Origin: Escherichia phage vB_EcoM-RPN226
Direction: 5' to 3' (one strand)
DNA: 64,000 nt
Sequence record: OL770073.2
Of the stretch, positions 34,054 to 62,517 are shown one piece after another (within the stretch, counting starts at the first letter, position 1; each line of letters begins with the position of its first letter). Under the pieces are notes generated by a model. The model made no database searches. It was not told where the DNA came from and worked only from the letters and a program-made list of their open reading frames with translations. Made by a program: the position numbers and the translations under genes.

Positions 34054-34102
34054 AGTATAAATATAGTAGTGTATTAAATCACGAATTAAAACAGGAAATA
34101 AG

Positions 34103-34576
34103 ATGAAATCATATGCTCAATTTTTAAATGAAGTGGCGTTAAATGAAGCATCCGCTTCAGATGTTCGCGCTGTAGCAACTGCTGCTATTAAAGCTGGTAA
34201 ATATTCTTATAAAGATGCTTCTGATGAATCCCGGTACAAGTTCTACGACGATATGAGAGCTGAAGGCTTTGTGGGTAACTATGTTACCACCGCCTGGAAA
34301 AGCCTGGTTGCTACTGGTGCGGCTTTCGAAAAACCTTCCGGTAAACCTGCTCCTAAAGCAGATCCTAAAGCTGCACAAGAAAAAAATATTGTTAAAGGAA
34401 TTATCGCTAAATATGAAGCTATCCTTAAAGAGCTTTTAGTAATCAAAACCGAAGGCCAAAAGTTAGCCCGTGCTTATAGTTTCAAAGACAACCCACATGC
34501 TCATGACCTAGAGTATGTTGAAGACATCCAAAAAATTATTAAAGACCGCATTTGGTCTGCTAAACAAATCAAATAA
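34103..34576 (+). CDS. internal-protein-like head protein with capsid targeting sequence
   Basis: N-terminus MKSYAQFLNEVALNEA (IP leader-like, L-N-E cleavage motifs); 157 aa; followed by terminator. Confidence 0.6.
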   Translation: MKSYAQFLNEVALNEASASDVRAVATAAIKAGKYSYKDASDESRYKFYDDMRAEGFVGNYVTTAWKSLVATGAAFEKPSGKPAPKADPKAAQEKNIVKGIIAKYEAILKELLVIKTEGQKLARAYSFKDNPHAHDLEYVEDIQKIIKDRIWSAKQIK

Positions 34577-34583
34577 CATTTTA

Positions 34584-35136: not shown

Positions 35137-35667
35137 ATGTCTCTTTATACCGAACTGAATGAAACTTCCGAAAAATCTTTTGATGGTATCTTATCAATAA
35201 TGCAAAAGCAGGTATTAGAACAGCTTAGTGAAGCCGCAAGCAACGGACATAAGGCTTGTCGAATCCCAAGCCCACATCGTCGCCTGTATGAACGCCCTCT
35301 TATTAATTGGCTAGAAAGCGAAGGTCTTACAGTTAAGATTTGTCCTGCCAAATTTGATGTCCCACGTATTCTTAATATTTACTGGGATAAACCGATTGAG
35401 AAACCGATTGAGAAAAGTGAACCTTGGGTTGTCAATGTAAAAACATATGATAATGGATGCTCACTTGAGGTGTCTGCTGTAATTAAAGGCACTCACGGTG
35501 AAAAATCGTGGGGTTGGCCTGGCAAAGATAAAGAAATCGTGTTAAGTGTAAAAGCTACTAGTATTAGTACTCCTATAGCTAAAAGCATTATCGCCGCCGC
35601 TGTTGAAGAAGCTGAACGAATTTGTAAAATTAAAAATAGTTTACATCTCTTAAATAGCATGATATAA
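35137..35667 (+). CDS. hypothetical protein
   Basis: 176 aa ORF with tandem KPIEKPIEK repeat; no recognisable domain. Confidence 0.55.
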   Translation: MSLYTELNETSEKSFDGILSIMQKQVLEQLSEAASNGHKACRIPSPHRRLYERPLINWLESEGLTVKICPAKFDVPRILNIYWDKPIEKPIEKSEPWVVNVKTYDNGCSLEVSAVIKGTHGEKSWGWPGKDKEIVLSVKATSISTPIAKSIIAAAVEEAERICKIKNSLHLLNSMI

Positions 35668-35710
35668 TTCTTCCACAGATTTTAATTTTTAATCAACCTA
35701 AGGAAATACT

Positions 35711-37315: not shown

Positions 37316-37659
37316 ATAAAGTCAAATATTCTTTTTCTGAGTCATTTTTAATTTTTGCTGTGGCGTTGGCTGCAGCTCTTGCGGGTAGTCTTTTTGGATT
37401 GTTAATTGACTGTCTTATTTTAAACATCGACGGCACAGTAAATATAACAGAAGTTTGGAGTGAACTTCGTTTTACTATAGCGATTTCATTATTTTCATTC
37501 TTTGGCACCATGCTATTTTTTCATTATGATAATTTTAAAATAAATTGGCAAAGAAAAAAGGATTACAAAATACAATTAAAAGAATATAATAGCTACATGT
37601 CTTATATTGAAAATGAATCAATGAAAGAGTTTGTGATTGATTGCAGGAAATTAAAATGA
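37297..37659 (+). CDS. hypothetical membrane protein
   Basis: 120 aa with hydrophobic helices. Confidence 0.5.
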   Translation: MQKPKLNKVKYSFSESFLIFAVALAAALAGSLFGLLIDCLILNIDGTVNITEVWSELRFTIAISLFSFFGTMLFFHYDNFKINWQRKKDYKIQLKEYNSYMSYIENESMKEFVIDCRKLK

Positions 37660-38096
37660 AAACATTATCAGCTGGTATTATCTTTATGACAGAAGATAAA
37701 GATTTATTTATGGGTCGGGTTACTGGTTCTCGTAAGCCTGGAATGATGGCACATCGCTGGGATATTCCAAAGGGCCATGTAGAAAATTCTGATTTAAGCG
37801 CATTAGATGCAGCACGAAGAGAATGTTTAGAAGAGACTGGTTTTAACAATTATAATCCAGGCCTTCTAGAAGACCTAGGTGTATTTAAATATTCTAGTAA
37901 TAAAGACTTACAGTTATTTTATTATACGATTCCAGTAGAGCATGAGATGTTTAGAAATTGCCATTGCGAGTCTTATTTTGAAAATAAAGATGGTGTTATG
38001 ATTCCAGAGATGGATGCTTTTGCTCTTATTCCTCGTACCCAGTGGCAATATGTGATGGGTCCTTCACTTTATCGAATAATGAACAGCCTCTTTTAA
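37656..38096 (+). CDS. nudE: Nudix hydrolase
   Basis: Nudix-box-like GHVENSDLSALDAARRECLEETGF; position upstream of e as in T4. Confidence 0.75.
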   Translation: MKTLSAGIIFMTEDKDLFMGRVTGSRKPGMMAHRWDIPKGHVENSDLSALDAARRECLEETGFNNYNPGLLEDLGVFKYSSNKDLQLFYYTIPVEHEMFRNCHCESYFENKDGVMIPEMDAFALIPRTQWQYVMGPSLYRIMNSLF

Positions 38097-38899
<803 letters not shown>

Positions 38900-38900
38900 T

Positions 38901-38931
38901 GTTTACTTCCTCCAAGGACTTTGATACTATA
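38901..38931 (+). promoter_or_regulatory. T4-type early promoter
   Basis: GTTTAC...17 bp...GATACTAT. Confidence 0.55.
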
Positions 38932-38957
38932 CATTCATCAACTACTTGGAGGAAATT

Positions 38958-39032
38958 ATGACTCGTATCAATTTAACAACTTCAGAATTATTTCTGGTGG
39001 TAAGGCTTAAACAGTTTACGCTTAAGTATTAA
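38958..39032 (+). pseudogene. denV: truncated remnant of endonuclease V gene (denV)
   Basis: 24-codon ORF MTRINLTTSELFLVVRLKQFTLKY; first 11 residues resemble the recalled T4 DenV N-terminus MTRINLTLVSEL, then diverges and stops. Confidence 0.5.
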
Positions 39033-39043
39033 TATGATATAAT
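39014..39043 (+). promoter_or_regulatory. T4-type early promoter embedded in denV remnant
   Basis: GTTTAC...18 bp...TGATATAAT, 30 nt upstream of next gene. Confidence 0.55.
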
Positions 39044-39073
39044 TACTCTATCAAAACAAACAAGGAAACAAAA

Positions 39074-41823: not shown

Positions 41824-41853
41824 GTTTACTTTTCCTCTTGACTGTGGTATAAT
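41824..41853 (+). promoter_or_regulatory. T4-type early promoter (regB)
   Basis: GTTTAC...TGTGGTATAAT, followed by GAGGAG RBS. Confidence 0.65.
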
Positions 41854-41880: not shown

Positions 41881-42342
41881 ATGACTATCAACACAGAAGT
41901 TTTTATCCGTCGAAATAAACTCCGTCGTCACTTTGAGTCGGAGTTTCGTCAAATTAACAATGAGATTCGTGAGGCATCAAAAGCAGCAGGGGTCTCATCG
42001 TTTCATCTAAAATATTCTCAGCATCTTCTTGATCGTGCAATTCAACGGGAGATCGATGAGACATATGTTTTTGAATTATTCCATAAAATAAAAGACCATG
42101 TTTTAGAAGTTAATGAATTCCTGAGTATGCCTCCGCGTCCTGACATTGACGAGGATTTTATTGATGGGGTTGAATATCGTCCTGGGCGTTTAGAAATCAC
42201 AGATGGAAATCTTTGGCTTGGATTTACAGTTTGTAAACCTAATGCGAAGTTCAAAGACCCGTCACTTCAATGTAGGATGGCCATTATCAACAGTCGTCGT
42301 TTACCAGGAAAGGCTTCTAAAGCAGTAATTAAAACTCAATGA
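41881..42342 (+). CDS. regB: site-specific endoribonuclease RegB
   Basis: 153 aa MTINTEVFIRRNKLRRHFESEF...; length and sequence consistent with T4 RegB as recalled. Confidence 0.85.
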   Translation: MTINTEVFIRRNKLRRHFESEFRQINNEIREASKAAGVSSFHLKYSQHLLDRAIQREIDETYVFELFHKIKDHVLEVNEFLSMPPRPDIDEDFIDGVEYRPGRLEITDGNLWLGFTVCKPNAKFKDPSLQCRMAIINSRRLPGKASKAVIKTQ

Positions 42343-42349
42343 GGTAAGC

Positions 42350-42895
42350 ATGAGAAAAGCACTACTCGCTGGTCTATTGGCCATTTCAATGATGGCACAT
42401 AGCTCCGAGCATACTTTCAGTAATGTCCAACTCGATAACATGCGTTACGCGTATCAATTCGGGGAACAATTTTCTAAGGATGGAAAATATAAAACACACA
42501 AAAATATCCACAAGAGCGGATTAGGTCATATAATGGCTGCTATTTTATGGCAAGAAAGCTCTGCCGGAGTTAATTTAAAATCTAAGCCAAAGCATCATGC
42601 CTACGGAATGTTCCAAAATTATTTGCCGACCATGCGTGCAAGAGTTAAGGAACTTGGTTATAATATGACCGATGCCGAAATAAAAAGAATGTTGAATAAA
42701 CGGTCCAATTCAGCTTCCTGGGCGTACATTGAACTTTCTTATTGGTTAAATATACATAAGGGTGATATAAGAAAGGCAATATCCTCTTATAATTCGGGAT
42801 GGAATGTTAAAGCAGGTTCTAAATATGCTTCTGAAGTCCTAGAAAAGGCTAATTACCTTAAAAATAATAAACTTTTGGAAATAGTAAATGACTAA
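42350..42895 (+). CDS. secreted protein, possibly transglycosylase-like (vs.1 position)
   Basis: N-terminal signal peptide MRKALLAGLLAISMMAHS; 181 aa; fold not verifiable by eye. Confidence 0.5.
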   Translation: MRKALLAGLLAISMMAHSSEHTFSNVQLDNMRYAYQFGEQFSKDGKYKTHKNIHKSGLGHIMAAILWQESSAGVNLKSKPKHHAYGMFQNYLPTMRARVKELGYNMTDAEIKRMLNKRSNSASWAYIELSYWLNIHKGDIRKAISSYNSGWNVKAGSKYASEVLEKANYLKNNKLLEIVND

Positions 42896-43235
42896 AATTT
42901 TGGTTTTATGCATAGGATTAATTTCATTTTCTGCTTCTGCGTCAGCAGATGCATCATATACTGAAATTAGAGAATATGTAAACCGTACTGCCGCGGATTA
43001 TTGTGGGAAAAATAAAGCATGCCAAGCTGAATTTGCGCAGAAATTAATATATGCATATAAAGACGGGGAAAGAGATAAATTAAGCAGATACAAAAATGAT
43101 ACTTTATTAAAACGATATGCTAAAAAGTGGAATACCTTAGAATGTTCAGTTGCGGAGGAGAAAGATAAAGCCGCTTGTCATTCAATGGTTGACCGTTTGG
43201 TAGATTCTTATAATCGAGGATTGAGTACTAAATGA
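42888..43235 (+). CDS. vs: valyl-tRNA synthetase modifier candidate
   Basis: 115 aa (same as T4 vs) located before tk; signal-peptide-like N-terminus; assignment by size and synteny only. Confidence 0.45.
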   Translation: MTKILVLCIGLISFSASASADASYTEIREYVNRTAADYCGKNKACQAEFAQKLIYAYKDGERDKLSRYKNDTLLKRYAKKWNTLECSVAEEKDKAACHSMVDRLVDSYNRGLSTK

Positions 43236-43699
43236 TTGTAAAATATATCAAGGGCGATATTGTCGCCCTGTTTTCTAAAGGTAATAATATTGCTCATGGG
43301 TGTAATTGTTTTCATACAATGGGCGCCGGTGTGGCAGGACAATTAGCAAAGGCTTATCCAAAAATTCTGGAAGCTGATAAACTACAGACTGAATGGGGTG
43401 ATGTAACTAAACTTGGTTCTTATTCAGTCTATGAAAAATACTTTAGGACCCATAAAGCTTATTGCTTTAATCTTTATACACAGTTTGAGCCGGGACCTAA
43501 TTTTGAGTACTTTGCTTTAATGAATTGTATAATAGAATTAAATGAATTCGGAAAGAATAAAATAACAAAGCCTGTAATTTATATGCCAAGAATTGGTGCA
43601 GGTATCGGTGGCGGAAACTGGGATGTAATCGAAGAGATTTTAGATACGTATTCCACTAAACTAGAAATTGTGATTGTTGATTGGGAACCATTATTATGA
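43232..43699 (+). CDS. macro-domain-like protein (ADP-ribose binding/processing fold)
   Basis: Two glycine-rich motifs IAHGCNCFHTMGAGVAGQL and IYMPRIGAGIGGGNW at macro-domain-like spacing; 155 aa. Confidence 0.55.
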   Translation: MIVKYIKGDIVALFSKGNNIAHGCNCFHTMGAGVAGQLAKAYPKILEADKLQTEWGDVTKLGSYSVYEKYFRTHKAYCFNLYTQFEPGPNFEYFALMNCIIELNEFGKNKITKPVIYMPRIGAGIGGGNWDVIEEILDTYSTKLEIVIVDWEPLL

Positions 43700-43908
43700 A
43701 TATACATTATCCACATCCATACGACCCAAAGAATAAGGCAGTAATTATTCGTCAATGGGAACGCATTTGCCGTACTAAATGTCCAATTAATAGTCCGCAT
43801 GATGTAGATAAAGACTACATTGGAACATTCGTCGAATATACCTTTATTGATAAGAAAGGTCGTAAACAGCATGTAGAAGAATACTGCTTAAAGGTGACAT
43901 GGTTATGA
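43696..43908 (+). CDS. hypothetical protein
   Basis: ATGA overlap with upstream stop; Cys/His-containing 70 aa. Confidence 0.45.
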   Translation: MNIHYPHPYDPKNKAVIIRQWERICRTKCPINSPHDVDKDYIGTFVEYTFIDKKGRKQHVEEYCLKVTWL

Positions 43909-44090
43909 GTTTAAGTAAAGAACAAAAAGACAAACTCTTTTCTCTTATCCATGGAGTTATGGATAAAAATAGTGAATTGGAAAAAGTTTGTGATGAATGC
44001 GGTCCTTTTAGCGCAAACGAGTACGAAGAACTTTCTAAAGAATTCGATAATAAAGAACAAGAACTCATTGATTATATAAATTCCTTATGA
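43905..44090 (+). CDS. small acidic helical protein (paralogue family member)
   Basis: 61 aa; similar to 44087, 46086 and 46292 ORFs. Confidence 0.5.
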   Translation: MSLSKEQKDKLFSLIHGVMDKNSELEKVCDECGPFSANEYEELSKEFDNKEQELIDYINSL

Positions 44091-44275
44091 TTACTCGCGA
44101 ACAAAAGAACGAAATATTATTTTTAGTTAGTGAAATTATTAGTTTAGAAAAGGATTTGTCTTTTGAATTATCTTCTGATTATGGAGATGACGAAACATAT
44201 TACGAATTAGTAAAATCTATCGATAAAGCTGAAAATGATTTAAAAACATATTTAGAAAATTTAACTAAGGGCTAA
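44087..44275 (+). CDS. small acidic helical protein (paralogue family member)
   Basis: 62 aa; MITREQKNEILFLVSEIISLEKDL pattern shared with neighbour. Confidence 0.5.
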   Translation: MITREQKNEILFLVSEIISLEKDLSFELSSDYGDDETYYELVKSIDKAENDLKTYLENLTKG

Positions 44276-44276
44276 G

Positions 44277-44858
44277 ATGGCGAGTTTAATTTTTACTTAT
44301 GCAGCAATGAATGCTGGAAAATCTGCTTCTCTTTTGACTGCTGCGCATAATTATAAAGAACGTGGAATGAGTGTATTAGTTCTTAAGCCTGCTATTGATA
44401 CTCGCGATTCTGTCTGTGAAGTCGTTTCTCGCATTGGAATTAAGCAGGAAGCGAATATTATTACAGATGATATGGATATTTTTGAGTTCTATAAATGGGC
44501 TGAAGCACAAAAAGATATTCATTGCGTATTTGTAGATGAAGCACAGTTTTTAAAAACTGAACAGGTGCATCAATTAAGCCGAATTGTCGATACATATAAT
44601 GTTCCTGTTATGGCTTATGGTCTAAGGACTGATTTCGCTGGAAAATTATTTGAAGGTTCTAAAGAACTTTTGGCGATTGCAGATAAACTTATTGAACTAA
44701 AAGCAGTTTGTCATTGCGGTAAAAAAGCGATTATGACAGCTCGATTAATGGAAGATGGAACACCAGTTAAAGAAGGTAATCAAATCTGTATTGGTGATGA
44801 AATTTATGTTTCTTTGTGCAGAAAACATTGGAATGAATTAACTAAAAAGCTCGGTTAG
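44277..44858 (+). CDS. tk: thymidine kinase
   Basis: 193 aa; P-loop AAMNAGKS; C-terminal zinc ribbon CHCGKK...C; same length as T4 Tk. Confidence 0.95.
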   Translation: MASLIFTYAAMNAGKSASLLTAAHNYKERGMSVLVLKPAIDTRDSVCEVVSRIGIKQEANIITDDMDIFEFYKWAEAQKDIHCVFVDEAQFLKTEQVHQLSRIVDTYNVPVMAYGLRTDFAGKLFEGSKELLAIADKLIELKAVCHCGKKAIMTARLMEDGTPVKEGNQICIGDEIYVSLCRKHWNELTKKLG

Positions 44859-44900
44859 TGCAAAAGTTATAAATAGGTTTATCTAACTAAAGGGGTATAT

Positions 44901-45113
44901 ATGCTACAATTAACTGAAAAGCAACTTCGCAATCTTACTGTTCTTCAATTAGATGAAATTCGTAGGGAAGTTGGAAATATCATTTCAGCTTTGCGTCGAG
45001 AAGTATCACTCAACCAATCTCCGGCAGACTATACTAGATTGCGAAATTTTGAAAAATACCTTGATAAAGTTAAGGCCGTGCATCGGCACAAAGTAAATAC
45101 AGGACAAAAATGA
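44901..45113 (+). CDS. hypothetical protein
   Basis: 70 aa ORF between tk and rI. Confidence 0.5.
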
Positions 45114-45125
45114 TAGGAGGCCTTT

Positions 45126-45419
45126 ATGGCCTTAAAAGCAACGGCACTATTTGCCATGCTAGGATTAGCGTTTGCTTTATCTCCACCGATTGAAGCGAAT
45201 GTCGATCCTCATTTTGATAAATTTATGGAATCTGGTATTAGACATGTTTATATGCTTTTTGAAAATAAAAGCGTAGAATCATCTGAACAGTTCTATAGTT
45301 TTATGCGAACGACCTATAAAAATGACCCGTGCTCTTCAGATTTTGAATGTATAGAGCGAGGCGCGGAGATGGCACAATCATACGCTAGAATTATGAACAT
45401 TAAATTGGAGATTGAATGA
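45126..45419 (+). CDS. rI: lysis inhibition regulator RI
   Basis: 97 aa with signal-anchor MALKATALFAMLGLAFALS; matches T4 RI as recalled. Confidence 0.85.
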   Translation: MALKATALFAMLGLAFALSPPIEANVDPHFDKFMESGIRHVYMLFENKSVESSEQFYSFMRTTYKNDPCSSDFECIERGAEMAQSYARIMNIKLEIE

Positions 45420-45802
45420 AATTCAGCGACTTTTCACAAAGTGGAAAACCTTCAAAGGCAGATGAATACTTAGGTTTATTAATGGCTGCACAAGCTTATT
45501 TTCATTCTGCGCATTTTGAAACTAAAAGTTATGCTAGACACAAAGCATACGATTTTATTTTCTCTGAGTTGCCAGATTTGATTGATAAATTTGGTGAGCA
45601 ATATTTGGGGTATTCTGGTAGAAAATACACACCTTCTATTCCAGATGCCAGTAAACTTCCTACCGACACAATTAAAATGATTGATCGCATACTAGACCAA
45701 TCTAACAGCATTTACAAAGAAATGCCTCCAGCCATTCAAAGCACGATAGATGATATTACTGGAATGTTTTATCAAAGTAAATATCTTCTTTCTCTCGAAT
45801 AA
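45416..45802 (+). CDS. hypothetical protein (rI.1 position)
   Basis: 128 aa ORF overlapping rI stop. Confidence 0.55.
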
Positions 45803-46291: not shown

Positions 46292-46492
46292 ATGCTGACA
46301 CACGAACAGTTTGAAAAAATCATTAAATTAGCACGTGATGTTGAAATAGATTCATATCAATTAGCAGTTGAGCATTGTGAAGGATATTCATATGAAGGTA
46401 TAGCAGCAGCTAAAAGAGATTTGGATGAATCTAAAGCTAAGTTAGTTCAATATCTTGAAATGATTAGGTGGAATAATGAAAACTGTAGTTAA
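46292..46492 (+). CDS. small acidic helical protein (paralogue family member)
   Basis: MLTHEQFEKIIKLARDVEID; 66 aa. Confidence 0.5.
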   Translation: MLTHEQFEKIIKLARDVEIDSYQLAVEHCEGYSYEGIAAAKRDLDESKAKLVQYLEMIRWNNENCS

Positions 46493-53730: not shown

Positions 53731-53942
53731 TGTTCGAAGGAACTGATTATATCCATGACTACCGCGGAAGCGCGGTATATGTAGGTGATGAAGTCGCAGT
53801 TTATTACGGGTATGGAACTTTGATGACAGCAAAGGTTATTCAAATTAAAAATGGCCGCGCTAAACTCGAAGTTTATTATTCTAACGGTGAAAGGTCTATT
53901 TCTAAATGGAAATATGGCGATTGCATGGTCAAACTGGGGTAA
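53727..53942 (+). CDS. hypothetical protein
   Basis: 71 aa ORF overlapping nrdC stop. Confidence 0.5.
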   Translation: MMFEGTDYIHDYRGSAVYVGDEVAVYYGYGTLMTAKVIQIKNGRAKLEVYYSNGERSISKWKYGDCMVKLG

Positions 53943-53944
53943 AT

Positions 53945-54115
53945 ATGATTTACGATATTAGTGTATCAAGAACTCCGTCAATGGTTACTATTCCTGCCGA
54001 AGAATTAGATCGTCTTCAGAAAATTGAAGAGCTTCTTTGGGAAATTGAATCTGATTTGCCATCAGGATTAGAATCCTGGATTGATTATGAAGAACTTAAT
54101 AAATTGCGAAATTAA
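53945..54115 (+). CDS. hypothetical small protein
   Basis: Start at ATG following previous stop; 56 aa. Confidence 0.4.
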   Translation: MIYDISVSRTPSMVTIPAEELDRLQKIEELLWEIESDLPSGLESWIDYEELNKLRN

Positions 54116-54125
54116 TTGGTGAAAA

Positions 54126-58386: not shown

Positions 58387-59209
58387 GTATTATATAATTT
58401 ATAAAATAACAAATATAATTAATTCAAAGGAATATATCGGTGCGCATAGCACCGATAACATAAATGACGGTTATATGGGGTCAGGAACATTGATTCGTGC
58501 CGCTTTATTAAAATATGGTAGAAAAAATTTTAATAAAGAAATTTTACATGTTTTTGATAATGAAAAACAAATGTATGATAAAGAAGCTGAACTTGTAACC
58601 GAAGAGTATTGTCTAAAAGAAAATACATATAATATTAAACCTGGTGGAAAAGGTGGAACTGCTTATGAACAGACACTTGAACATCGCCACAAAAATAGTT
58701 TAGCAAATAAAGGTAAAAAGAAAACGGCAGAAACTAAAATAGCTATTTCACGTGCTTTAAAGAAATATAAACGTACGCCAGAGCATCAAGCAAATTTAAA
58801 TAAAGCTGTAAGAATAGCTATGAAGCGAAAAGATGTTAGAAGTAAATTAACTGGAGAGCGTTCTGAGAAAGATAAATTATCTATATCAAACGGTGTTAAA
58901 AAATATTACAATTCTTTGAGCGAAGAAGAACGTGAACTGCATCGCAAGCGAATTATTGAAGGTAAAAAGAATTCTCCCATGTCATTGGAATCTAGACAAA
59001 AGCTTTCAAAAGCTTTAAAAGGACTTCAAGTTGGTTCAAAAAATCCAATGTATGGAAAAATTTCTCCAACTAGCAAAACCGTTTCAGTTGACGGTATTAA
59101 ATATGATTCAATTAAAAAGTGCTCAAATGCCATAAAAGTTTCTAGACATCTTATACTAAAACGCTGTAATTCTACTGATGAAGCTTGGAAAAATTGGATA
59201 TTATTATGA
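58379..59209 (+). CDS. GIY-YIG homing endonuclease, SegB paralogue, between nrdD and nrdG
   Basis: YIIYKITNIINSKEYIGAHSTDNINDGYMGSG nearly identical in pattern to SegB N-terminus at 32964; NUMOD-like C-terminal repeats. Confidence 0.8.
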   Translation: MHRYYIIYKITNIINSKEYIGAHSTDNINDGYMGSGTLIRAALLKYGRKNFNKEILHVFDNEKQMYDKEAELVTEEYCLKENTYNIKPGGKGGTAYEQTLEHRHKNSLANKGKKKTAETKIAISRALKKYKRTPEHQANLNKAVRIAMKRKDVRSKLTGERSEKDKLSISNGVKKYYNSLSEEERELHRKRIIEGKKNSPMSLESRQKLSKALKGLQVGSKNPMYGKISPTSKTVSVDGIKYDSIKKCSNAIKVSRHLILKRCNSTDEAWKNWILL

Positions 59210-59790: not shown

Positions 59791-60006
59791 ATGTATAAAT
59801 TTCGTAAAGGTTTAGCTGATTTTCTTACAACTGTAACGTTCTTTTTGTTTATGGCAGTTGGAGCTATTTTCCTTATTCCTTTTATTGCTATATTTTTCGT
59901 GATTAGCTTAATTTCTCCAGAAAAAGGCTTATCTTCTAGCGAGTTTAATGAGCGTCTGGATAAAATTACTAACAAACTGAATGCTGTTCTTGATAAAAAG
60001 GCTTAA
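59791..60006 (+). CDS. small membrane protein
   Basis: ATG at 59791; single long hydrophobic helix. Confidence 0.5.
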   Translation: MYKFRKGLADFLTTVTFFLFMAVGAIFLIPFIAIFFVISLISPEKGLSSSEFNERLDKITNKLNAVLDKKA

Positions 60007-60008
60007 TT

Positions 60009-60320
60009 ATGATTAGTTTTGAGCAGTACGTGGTAGAGAGTTGGAAGGGTTTTGATATGTTCGGTAATGACTATTATTTCTATGAATGTAGTCTAAATCC
60101 TAGTTTTTGGGCTGGACGAGAACGAGAACTTGAAGAAATTAATAACCGTGCTGAATTGTTAGGTGAATTACCTACGGTTTATTTTACCTTTGATGCATCT
60201 GGATTTGTTATCCAGGTTTATTTTCCTGAAGAAAATTCTGGCGATGATTCTGTTAACCCGCCATACTGGGCTTATCAAGGAATTATTTCTCGTGGAACAA
60301 AACTCGAACTTAAAGAATAA
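60009..60320 (+). CDS. hypothetical protein
   Basis: 103 aa ORF. Confidence 0.5.
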   Translation: MISFEQYVVESWKGFDMFGNDYYFYECSLNPSFWAGRERELEEINNRAELLGELPTVYFTFDASGFVIQVYFPEENSGDDSVNPPYWAYQGIISRGTKLELKE

Positions 60321-62173: not shown

Positions 62174-62439
62174 AATTAATTAATATTTCTATTGCTATTG
62201 AAAATTTTGGTATTTTCTATGTTGACCAATACATGAAAATTTCATTTTTCCCAAATAAGACTGGTGTTGGATATTGGGAAAGCCATGTTTCTGAATTAAA
62301 TGAAAGTAAATATTCTAACACCCATAAAAAGTTTTTAGACTTTTTATATCATGCTGATTTAACTAGTCATTACATAGATATTCATGAATTTAAAAAGATG
62401 ATGGAGAAAGTGTTCCAAGCATACTGCTTACTTAGATAA
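62170..62439 (+). CDS. hypothetical protein
   Basis: 89 aa ORF. Confidence 0.5.
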   Translation: MKLINISIAIENFGIFYVDQYMKISFFPNKTGVGYWESHVSELNESKYSNTHKKFLDFLYHADLTSHYIDIHEFKKMMEKVFQAYCLLR

Positions 62440-62517
62440 CTGATATCCTCTATGCTTTAAGATAGATCTTCAAATATTATGATATAATAGATCTATGAAT
62501 TGAGCTAAGAGGTGAAA

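Follow-up and report, generated by a model that had tools for sequence, protein, structure and literature searches.

What does a stand-alone macrodomain protein do in the early region of a T-even phage, and by which chemistry does it act? The question is raised by a small gene in the stretch of Escherichia phage vB_EcoM-RPN226 DNA analysed here (OL770073.2; 64,000 nucleotides, referred to as the window). The gene occupies positions 43232..43699 of the plus strand, stop codon included, and encodes a protein of 155 amino acids from an ATG start. A preliminary description, made from the sequence, had drawn attention to two glycine-rich motifs in this ORF and proposed a macrodomain that reverses ADP-ribosylation or degrades defence signals. 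Both motifs are found in the translation where they had been placed.

The gene lies directly 3' of vs and four genes ahead of tk (44277-44858), which agrees with its earlier placement between the two. The upstream neighbour vs (42888..43235, plus strand) encodes the valyl-tRNA synthetase modifier (PHROG 1256, E=1.6e-38; 97% amino acid identity to T4 Vs) and is itself preceded by vs.1 (42350-42895), which carries an SLT domain. On the downstream side, tk.3 (43696..43908, plus strand) encodes a 70-residue DUF7202 protein (Pfam E=1.6e-38, positions 1-70/70), followed by two DUF7438 ORFs, tk.2 and tk.1, that fill the space between tk.3 and tk. The gene order regB-vs.1-vs-tk.4-tk.3-tk.2-tk.1-tk is identical in T4. 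The DNA of the region is ~95% identical to T4 and to many other Tequatroviruses, where the same ORF is named tk.4, and the synteny of tk.4 is kept across Tevenvirinae. ORFs that overlap tk.4 on the opposite strand were dismissed for want of a significant match to any family (best PHROG E=0.075).

The stop codon of vs and the start codon of tk.4 overlap in an ATGA (43232..43235), and a second ATGA joins the tk.4 stop to the tk.3 start (43696..43699, both on the plus strand). The coupling to a small downstream ORF that had been pointed out before is therefore correct as an overlap, but tk.3 does not hold up as a consistent partner. Many syntenic loci keep regB, vs.1, tk.4 and tk without tk.3, for which reason a functional tie between tk.4 and tk.3 was rejected, and tk.3 never adjoins the more distant tk.4 homologs. 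Other gene junctions of the region also carry ATGA overlaps. Since tk.3 is not a consistent neighbour, the ATGA coupling is no evidence of a functional pair.

A few further features of the region were observed. The longest tk.2 ORF (43899-44090) begins at ATG 43899, and the start equivalent to that of T4 is ATG 43905, which again overlaps the stop of tk.3 in an ATGA (43905-43908); the 63-residue reading of tk.2 is probably two codons too long. In tk.1 (44087-44275), all six nucleotide differences from T4 are non-synonymous (dS 0, dN 0.041), which is not statistically significant at n=6. The best sigma-70-like promoter match of the region lies just 5' of regB, at 41825-41853 (TTTACT-17-TATAAT with an upstream TG). 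Judging by its sequence, this site could drive an early transcript from regB to tk that includes tk.4. Overall, the promoter-like sites of the region do not outnumber those of shuffled sequence.

The assignment of the tk.4 product to the macrodomains is confirmed by profile and structure comparisons. Pfam Macro (PF01661) matches residues 22-136 with 25.3 bits, above the gathering cutoff of 22 (E=1.6e-5, profile positions 2-117/118), and PHROG 335 matches with E=6e-67. A single-sequence search of the PDB returns BT1257 (4e-10), yeast Poa1p (2e-8), SCO6735, DarG macrodomains and TARG1, and with a family profile of 58 sequences the matches improve to a range of 2.5e-17 to 3.6e-12. The AlphaFold2 model, calculated from the 58-sequence family alignment with the T4 sequence left out, has a pLDDT of 94.9 and a pTM of 0.90. 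The predicted structure is a three-layer alpha/beta/alpha macro fold, for which Foldseek returns a probability of 1.00 to known macrodomains including SCO6735. Together, the PDB and profile matches and the model place the protein in the ALC1/TARG1-like class.

The family is large. Homologs of tk.4 were detected by tblastn in 2782 phage records, and a profile run against 1.84 billion representative proteins retrieves at least 1199 clusters (50% identity) at E<=1e-30, mostly of stand-alone proteins of ~150-160 residues. The gene is under purifying selection, with a dN/dS of 0.07 in the comparison with T4 and a range of 0.07-0.12 over comparisons. The tk.4 ORF is a real macrodomain gene, with a signal far above chance.

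Fusions were also seen in the family, in which the macrodomain is joined to a NUDIX (P0232) or a DUF4326 (P0210) domain. The NUDIX fusion fits a putative role of the family in ADP-ribose processing. In T4, nudE encodes a separate Nudix hydrolase that is active on ADP-ribose, and the T4 nudE/e stretch aligns to positions 37630-38616 of the window. The NUDIX fusions and nudE suggest downstream processing of the released ADP-ribose.

Much of this has precedent. Recognition of the A1pp (macro) domain in tk.4 orthologs dates back to 2006 (PMC1524935); the RefSeq annotation of the gene reads 'contains A1pp phosphatase motif', and many GenBank records use 'macro domain protein'. According to a 2022 survey, 41% of myoviruses have macro domains (PMC9503650). 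In T4, the function was approached by HIDEN-SEQ, described in a November 2025 preprint, in which a saturated transposon library of the phage was challenged with DarTG2; tk.4 was the single significant hit on the DarTG2 host (10.1101/2025.11.20.689424). A clean tk.4 knockout rendered T4 DarTG2-sensitive, and the gene was named adfM, for anti-DarT factor Macrodomain. On plain E. coli K-12 the phage can do without it, and the need for it arises only in the presence of DarTG2; hydrolysis of ADP-ribose from DNA is what the preprint infers (10.1101/2025.11.20.689424). The macrodomain identity of tk.4 (2006) and its anti-DarTG2 role in T4 (2025) are thus already known and are not a discovery of this work. 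Among the roles put forward in the preliminary description, reversal of DarT-type ADP-ribosylation is supported by these T4 genetics and is the sole one with direct published support.

The window protein aligns to T4 Tk.4 over all 155 residues without a gap, at 88% amino acid identity. The two proteins have the same length, synteny and ATGA overlaps and hold all family-invariant residues in common. On these grounds of sequence and position, the window ORF is the ortholog of T4 tk.4 (adfM). The genetic requirement against DarTG2 concerns the T4 ortholog, from which the window allele differs by 18 substitutions; one of them falls in the phosphate loop, where K127 of T4 is replaced by the family-consensus Gly. 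Given the high identity, we infer that the window allele does the same job as T4 tk.4.

The two glycine-rich motifs correspond to the ligand loops of the macrodomain. Loop 1, the substrate-binding motif HGCNCFHTMGAGVAG, comprises residues 22-36 (H22-G-C-N25-C-F-H-T-M-G-A-G33-V-A35-G; 43295..43339, plus strand). In 258 family members, H22 is conserved to 97%, and N25, G33 and A35 are each present in 257-258 sequences. The loop aligns to His24, Val25 and Asn27 of SCO6735, and N25 to N23 of PhiKZ AdfM. Loop 2, assigned from alignment and conservation, is the phosphate-binding P119-R-I-G122-A-G124-I-G-G-G-N-W130 (43586..43621, plus strand). It includes IGAGIGGGNW (residues 121-130, nucleotides 43592-43621) and aligns to PRIGCGLAGGTW of SCO6735, with its Gly126 and Gly128. 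P119, G122 and G124 are conserved to 99% and W130 to 97%. Both loops are conserved at the residue level, and the tk.4 product is predicted to bind ADP-ribose with them.

A third motif, N80-L-Y-T-Q84 (43469..43483, plus strand), was located by profile alignment to TARG1 and BT1257 as well as by MAFFT. Its last residue occupies the catalytic Lys site of TARG1 (K84) and DarG (K80) and corresponds to Gln85 of SCO6735 and to its Gln counterpart in Bt_1257. Q84 is present in 258/258 family sequences, none of which has Lys, and the pattern N-x-Y-x-Q is kept in 256 of the 257 database members. Overall, His24, Val25, Asn27, Gln85, Gly126 and Gly128 of SCO6735 are matched by H22, G23, N25, Q84, G122 and G124, each with a conservation of 97% or more across the family. 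What the present analysis adds is that the T4-type family, as aligned here, has an invariant Gln where DarG, TARG1 and PhiKZ AdfM carry the catalytic Lys. Asp49 (43376..43378, plus strand) is a family-specific residue, likewise conserved in 258/258; it aligns to a conserved Tyr of BT1257, SCO6735, ALC1, DarG and PhiKZ gp104.

SCO6735 is a Gln-type enzyme that strips thymidine-linked ADP-ribose from DNA faster than DarG and rescues DarT toxicity (PMC9411070). It favours DNA over protein substrates, and each of the mutations Q85A, Q85E and N27S abolishes its activity (PMC9411070). The Gln and the supporting Asn of SCO6735 and Bt_1257, both Gln-type ALC1-like macrodomains (PDB 5E3B, 2FG1), are common to the tk.4 product (Q84, N25). 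Differences between them can nevertheless be observed. The identity is just ~26-30%, the tk.4 product has a mobile loop that is shorter by 5-6 residues, so that BT1257 needs a 6-residue insertion relative to the Tk.4 family in the profile alignment, and the DNA-positioning Lys34 and Lys89 of SCO6735 are without counterpart. Full membership of the SCO6735/Bt_1257 subclass was rejected, as the extended mobile loop, which in that subclass exceeds those of TARG1 and DarG by about 5 residues, is absent.

Nor is the tk.4 product a DarG. DarG and DarG2 (PDB 5M31, 5M3I, 7OMU) have a catalytic Lys80 (Taq and Mtb DarG), where the tk.4 product has Gln84. The C-terminal DarT-binding domain of DarG, whose profile has ~330-340 positions, is missing from the 155-residue protein. 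The NCBIfam DarG equivalog NF048014 scores 33.1 bits, compared to a cutoff of 250, and the PADLOC DarG model scores 34 bits over profile positions 2-145/329 only. The genes adjoining tk.4 are vs and tk.3, and neither is a darT gene. Membership of the DarG family was rejected on account of the low score, the Gln in place of Lys, the lack of the C-terminal domain and the lack of a darT neighbour.

A second phage protein bears the name 'AdfM' (Cell Rep 2026), PhiKZ gp104, which in vitro clears DNA of the ADP-ribose attached by DarT2 (PMC13309987). It is likewise a stand-alone macrodomain that counters DarTG2, with its Asn N23 corresponding to N25. Unlike the tk.4 product, PhiKZ gp104 is of the DarG type; its lysine lies in an FPTK motif, its PADLOC DarG score is 133 bits against 34, and the BLASTP match between the two proteins covers 23 residues only. 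The DarG-type score and motif, together with this short match, indicate that the two AdfMs are distantly related macrodomain clades under one name.

Based on these comparisons, we consider, with a probability of roughly three in four, that tk.4 encodes an early-region, stand-alone macrodomain enzyme, an orphan antitoxin-like counter-defence that hydrolyses thymidine-linked ADP-ribose by a Gln/Asn-assisted, water-mediated reaction. On infection, the DarT2 toxin of the host would ADP-ribosylate thymidines of single-stranded phage DNA and thereby block replication. The two glycine-rich loops of the tk.4 macrodomain would enclose the ADP-ribose, and the enzyme would hydrolyse the ribose-thymine bond, which would give normal DNA back. 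Q84, held by Asn25, would position the distal ribose for attack by an activated water, in the manner of SCO6735. The alignment of Q84 and N25 and the likeness to SCO6735 make Gln/Asn-assisted hydrolysis the most likely mechanism. By this analogy, SCO6735-type chemistry is most likely for the tk.4 product, unlike the catalytic-lysine chemistry of DarG, TARG1 and PhiKZ AdfM, and its mechanism is expected to be Gln-based.

Protection without catalysis is conceivable, because catalytically dead SCO6735 still inhibits DarT. The Q85A mutant of SCO6735, K80A of DarG and K84A of TARG1 all inhibit DarT by interaction, SCO6735 being the strongest (PMC9411070). The tk.4 product could similarly protect mainly by binding and inhibiting DarT2 rather than by hydrolysing ADP-ribosylated DNA, and the cassette-like exchange of tk.4 alleles described below would suit a protein-protein arms race. 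However, the tk.4 product lacks the C-terminal DarT-binding domain of DarG, and the residues conserved in 257-258 of the 258 sequences are those of the active site (N25, Q84, G33), which the substitutions between alleles spare, while dN/dS is low. PhiKZ AdfM is also catalytic in vitro (PMC13309987). Inhibition by toxin binding is therefore improbable as the main activity, and we infer that the protection by tk.4 is catalytic.

The historical 'A1pp phosphatase' annotation implies a different substrate. The tk.4 product would then be a small-molecule hydrolase, either a Poa1p-like ADP-ribose-1''-phosphate phosphatase or an O-acetyl-ADP-ribose deacetylase, with the DarTG2 effect being secondary. 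Poa1p, an ADP-ribose-1''-phosphate phosphatase, is indeed among the closest structural neighbours, and both Poa1p from yeast and human TARG1/OARD1 belong to the same ALC1/TARG1-like structural class as the tk.4 product. The loop after the catalytic position has the same length as in TARG1, whereas the Lys84/Asp125 dyad of TARG1 is replaced by Q84 and G126. With the residue requirements of Poa1p drawn from PDB entry titles alone, its mutant sites are His23, Ser30 and Phe152. Of these, the His is present as H22, position 29 is a Thr and variable in the family, and the Phe152 site is Gly in the tk.4 product and Gly or Ala in the family, as in SCO6735 and BT1257, which would speak against a Poa1p-like role. 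Macrodomains of this class are often weakly active on Appr1p in vitro without this being their main role. As DarTG2 sensitivity is the only phenotype on record for the T4 ortholog, we find a small-molecule function quite unlikely.

DNA is also not the only macromolecule that carries ADP-ribose. The tk.4 product could reverse the ADP-ribosylation of protein or RNA, introduced by the phage enzymes Alt, ModA and ModB or by defences of the host that use other ADP-ribosyltransferases. The three phage enzymes attach it to arginine, and we know of no report of this linkage as a substrate of TARG1 or SCO6735; it lies outside the reported substrates of the two enzymes. TARG1 and SCO6735 do cleave Glu/Asp-linked ADP-ribose from proteins in addition to their DNA substrate, with SCO6735 preferring DNA (PMC9411070), and T-even phages encode ADP-ribosyltransferases (PMC9503650). 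No ADP-ribosyltransferase gene adjoins tk.4, however, and the dispensability of the gene on plain K-12, as opposed to hosts with DarTG2, makes a protein or RNA target very unlikely. Degradation of ADP-ribose-derived immune signals (Thoeris gcADPR, His-ADPR or similar), which had been suggested at the outset, is harder still to credit, and nothing points to Thoeris or other signals. Among the closest relatives there are only glycohydrolases that act on conjugated ADP-ribose and no signal binders, and no report of signal degradation by this class was found in PMC9411070, PMC13309987, PMC9503650 or the HIDEN-SEQ preprint.

Hydrolysis of thymidine-linked ADP-ribose remains our preferred function for tk.4, and the gene has a history that differs from that of its surroundings. 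Compared to T4, the tk.4 DNA is 85% identical with a dS of 0.82, whereas the flanks from regB to rI.-1 (41881-45802 of the window) are 95-100% identical with a dS of ~0.1-0.2 where estimable. The raised divergence is confined to a block inside the ORF (43270..43661, plus strand), with 3-16 mismatches to T4 per 60 nucleotides inside and 0-4 outside, and the conserved ends of the gene form its boundaries. The preliminary description had spoken of a variable early region, and this takes a concrete form here, with tk.4 being a gene-sized divergent cassette in conserved flanks.

Similar discordance is seen with other phages. The flanking proteins of the window are 97-100% identical to those of the Tequatrovirus T4 and 93-100% to those of the Tequatrovirus RB6, while the Tk.4 proteins are 88% and 58% identical, respectively. 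The closest alleles come from Mosigvirus: in RPN187 and related phages, Tk.4 is 93-95% identical, despite flanks that are only 63-84% identical, apart from RPN187 tk.3 with 100%. The window allele is mosaic even within the gene: it resembles T4 over residues 1-14 and 43-85, and Mosigvirus over residues 15-42 and 86-142. Not one record of the phage collection matches the window tk.4 at 95% identity or more. The divergent gene in conserved flanks and its Mosigvirus-like allele indicate that tk.4 is exchanged among T-even phages as a gene-sized cassette.

The window differs from T4 at several other places. The block from mobD to mobD.2a is missing at 46466-46485, where the alignment jumps from T4 58156 to 56455. 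The segments 34059-34580, 35140-35693, 38617-39061, 53732-54118, 58658-59197, 59992-60315 and 62185-62444 are without similarity to T4, and a segB-like stretch (58399-58657, 68% identity) adjoins one of them. Such gaps and insertions are typical of homing-endonuclease and plasticity-region variation.

At the 5' end of tk.4, codons 7-13 contain a GC-rich 8-bp hairpin, AGGGCGAT-ATT-GTCGCCCT, which is followed by a U-rich tract and thus resembles a terminator (43251..43269, plus strand; RNAfold -13 kcal/mol). The hairpin nucleotides are kept in tk.4 alleles whose proteins are just 55-61% identical. At 39-42% identity, the phages have a hairpin of different sequence in the same codons (GAGGGAGAT-TTR-ATCTCCC), and many other alleles have none. 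In the stem, 6 of 7 codons for identical amino acids are unchanged. The synonymous-site test on the stem is not significant, since the fraction of codons retained elsewhere in the gene is already ~0.6. Judging by its position and sequence, the hairpin may serve as an attenuator behind vs or as an mRNA element, or it may simply be a homology patch at the edge of the cassette.

It is possible, although we hold this only tentatively and would sooner bet against it, that the T4-type AdfM constitutes a mechanistically distinct clade of DNA de-ADP-ribosylases with an origin independent of DarG, marked by Gln84, Asp49 and the short mobile loop, and that the swapping of its alleles reflects an arms race with DarT2-like toxins. 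If so, the swapped tk.4 alleles possibly differ in toxin or substrate range. The predicted SCO6735-type, Gln-dependent chemistry of the T4 type makes Q84A, N25A and D49A testable mutants. The name AdfM covers two phage proteins, T4 Tk.4 and PhiKZ gp104, that come from separate macrodomain clades and differ in their catalytic residues, and in the T-even phages this counter-defence gene moves as a gene-sized cassette.
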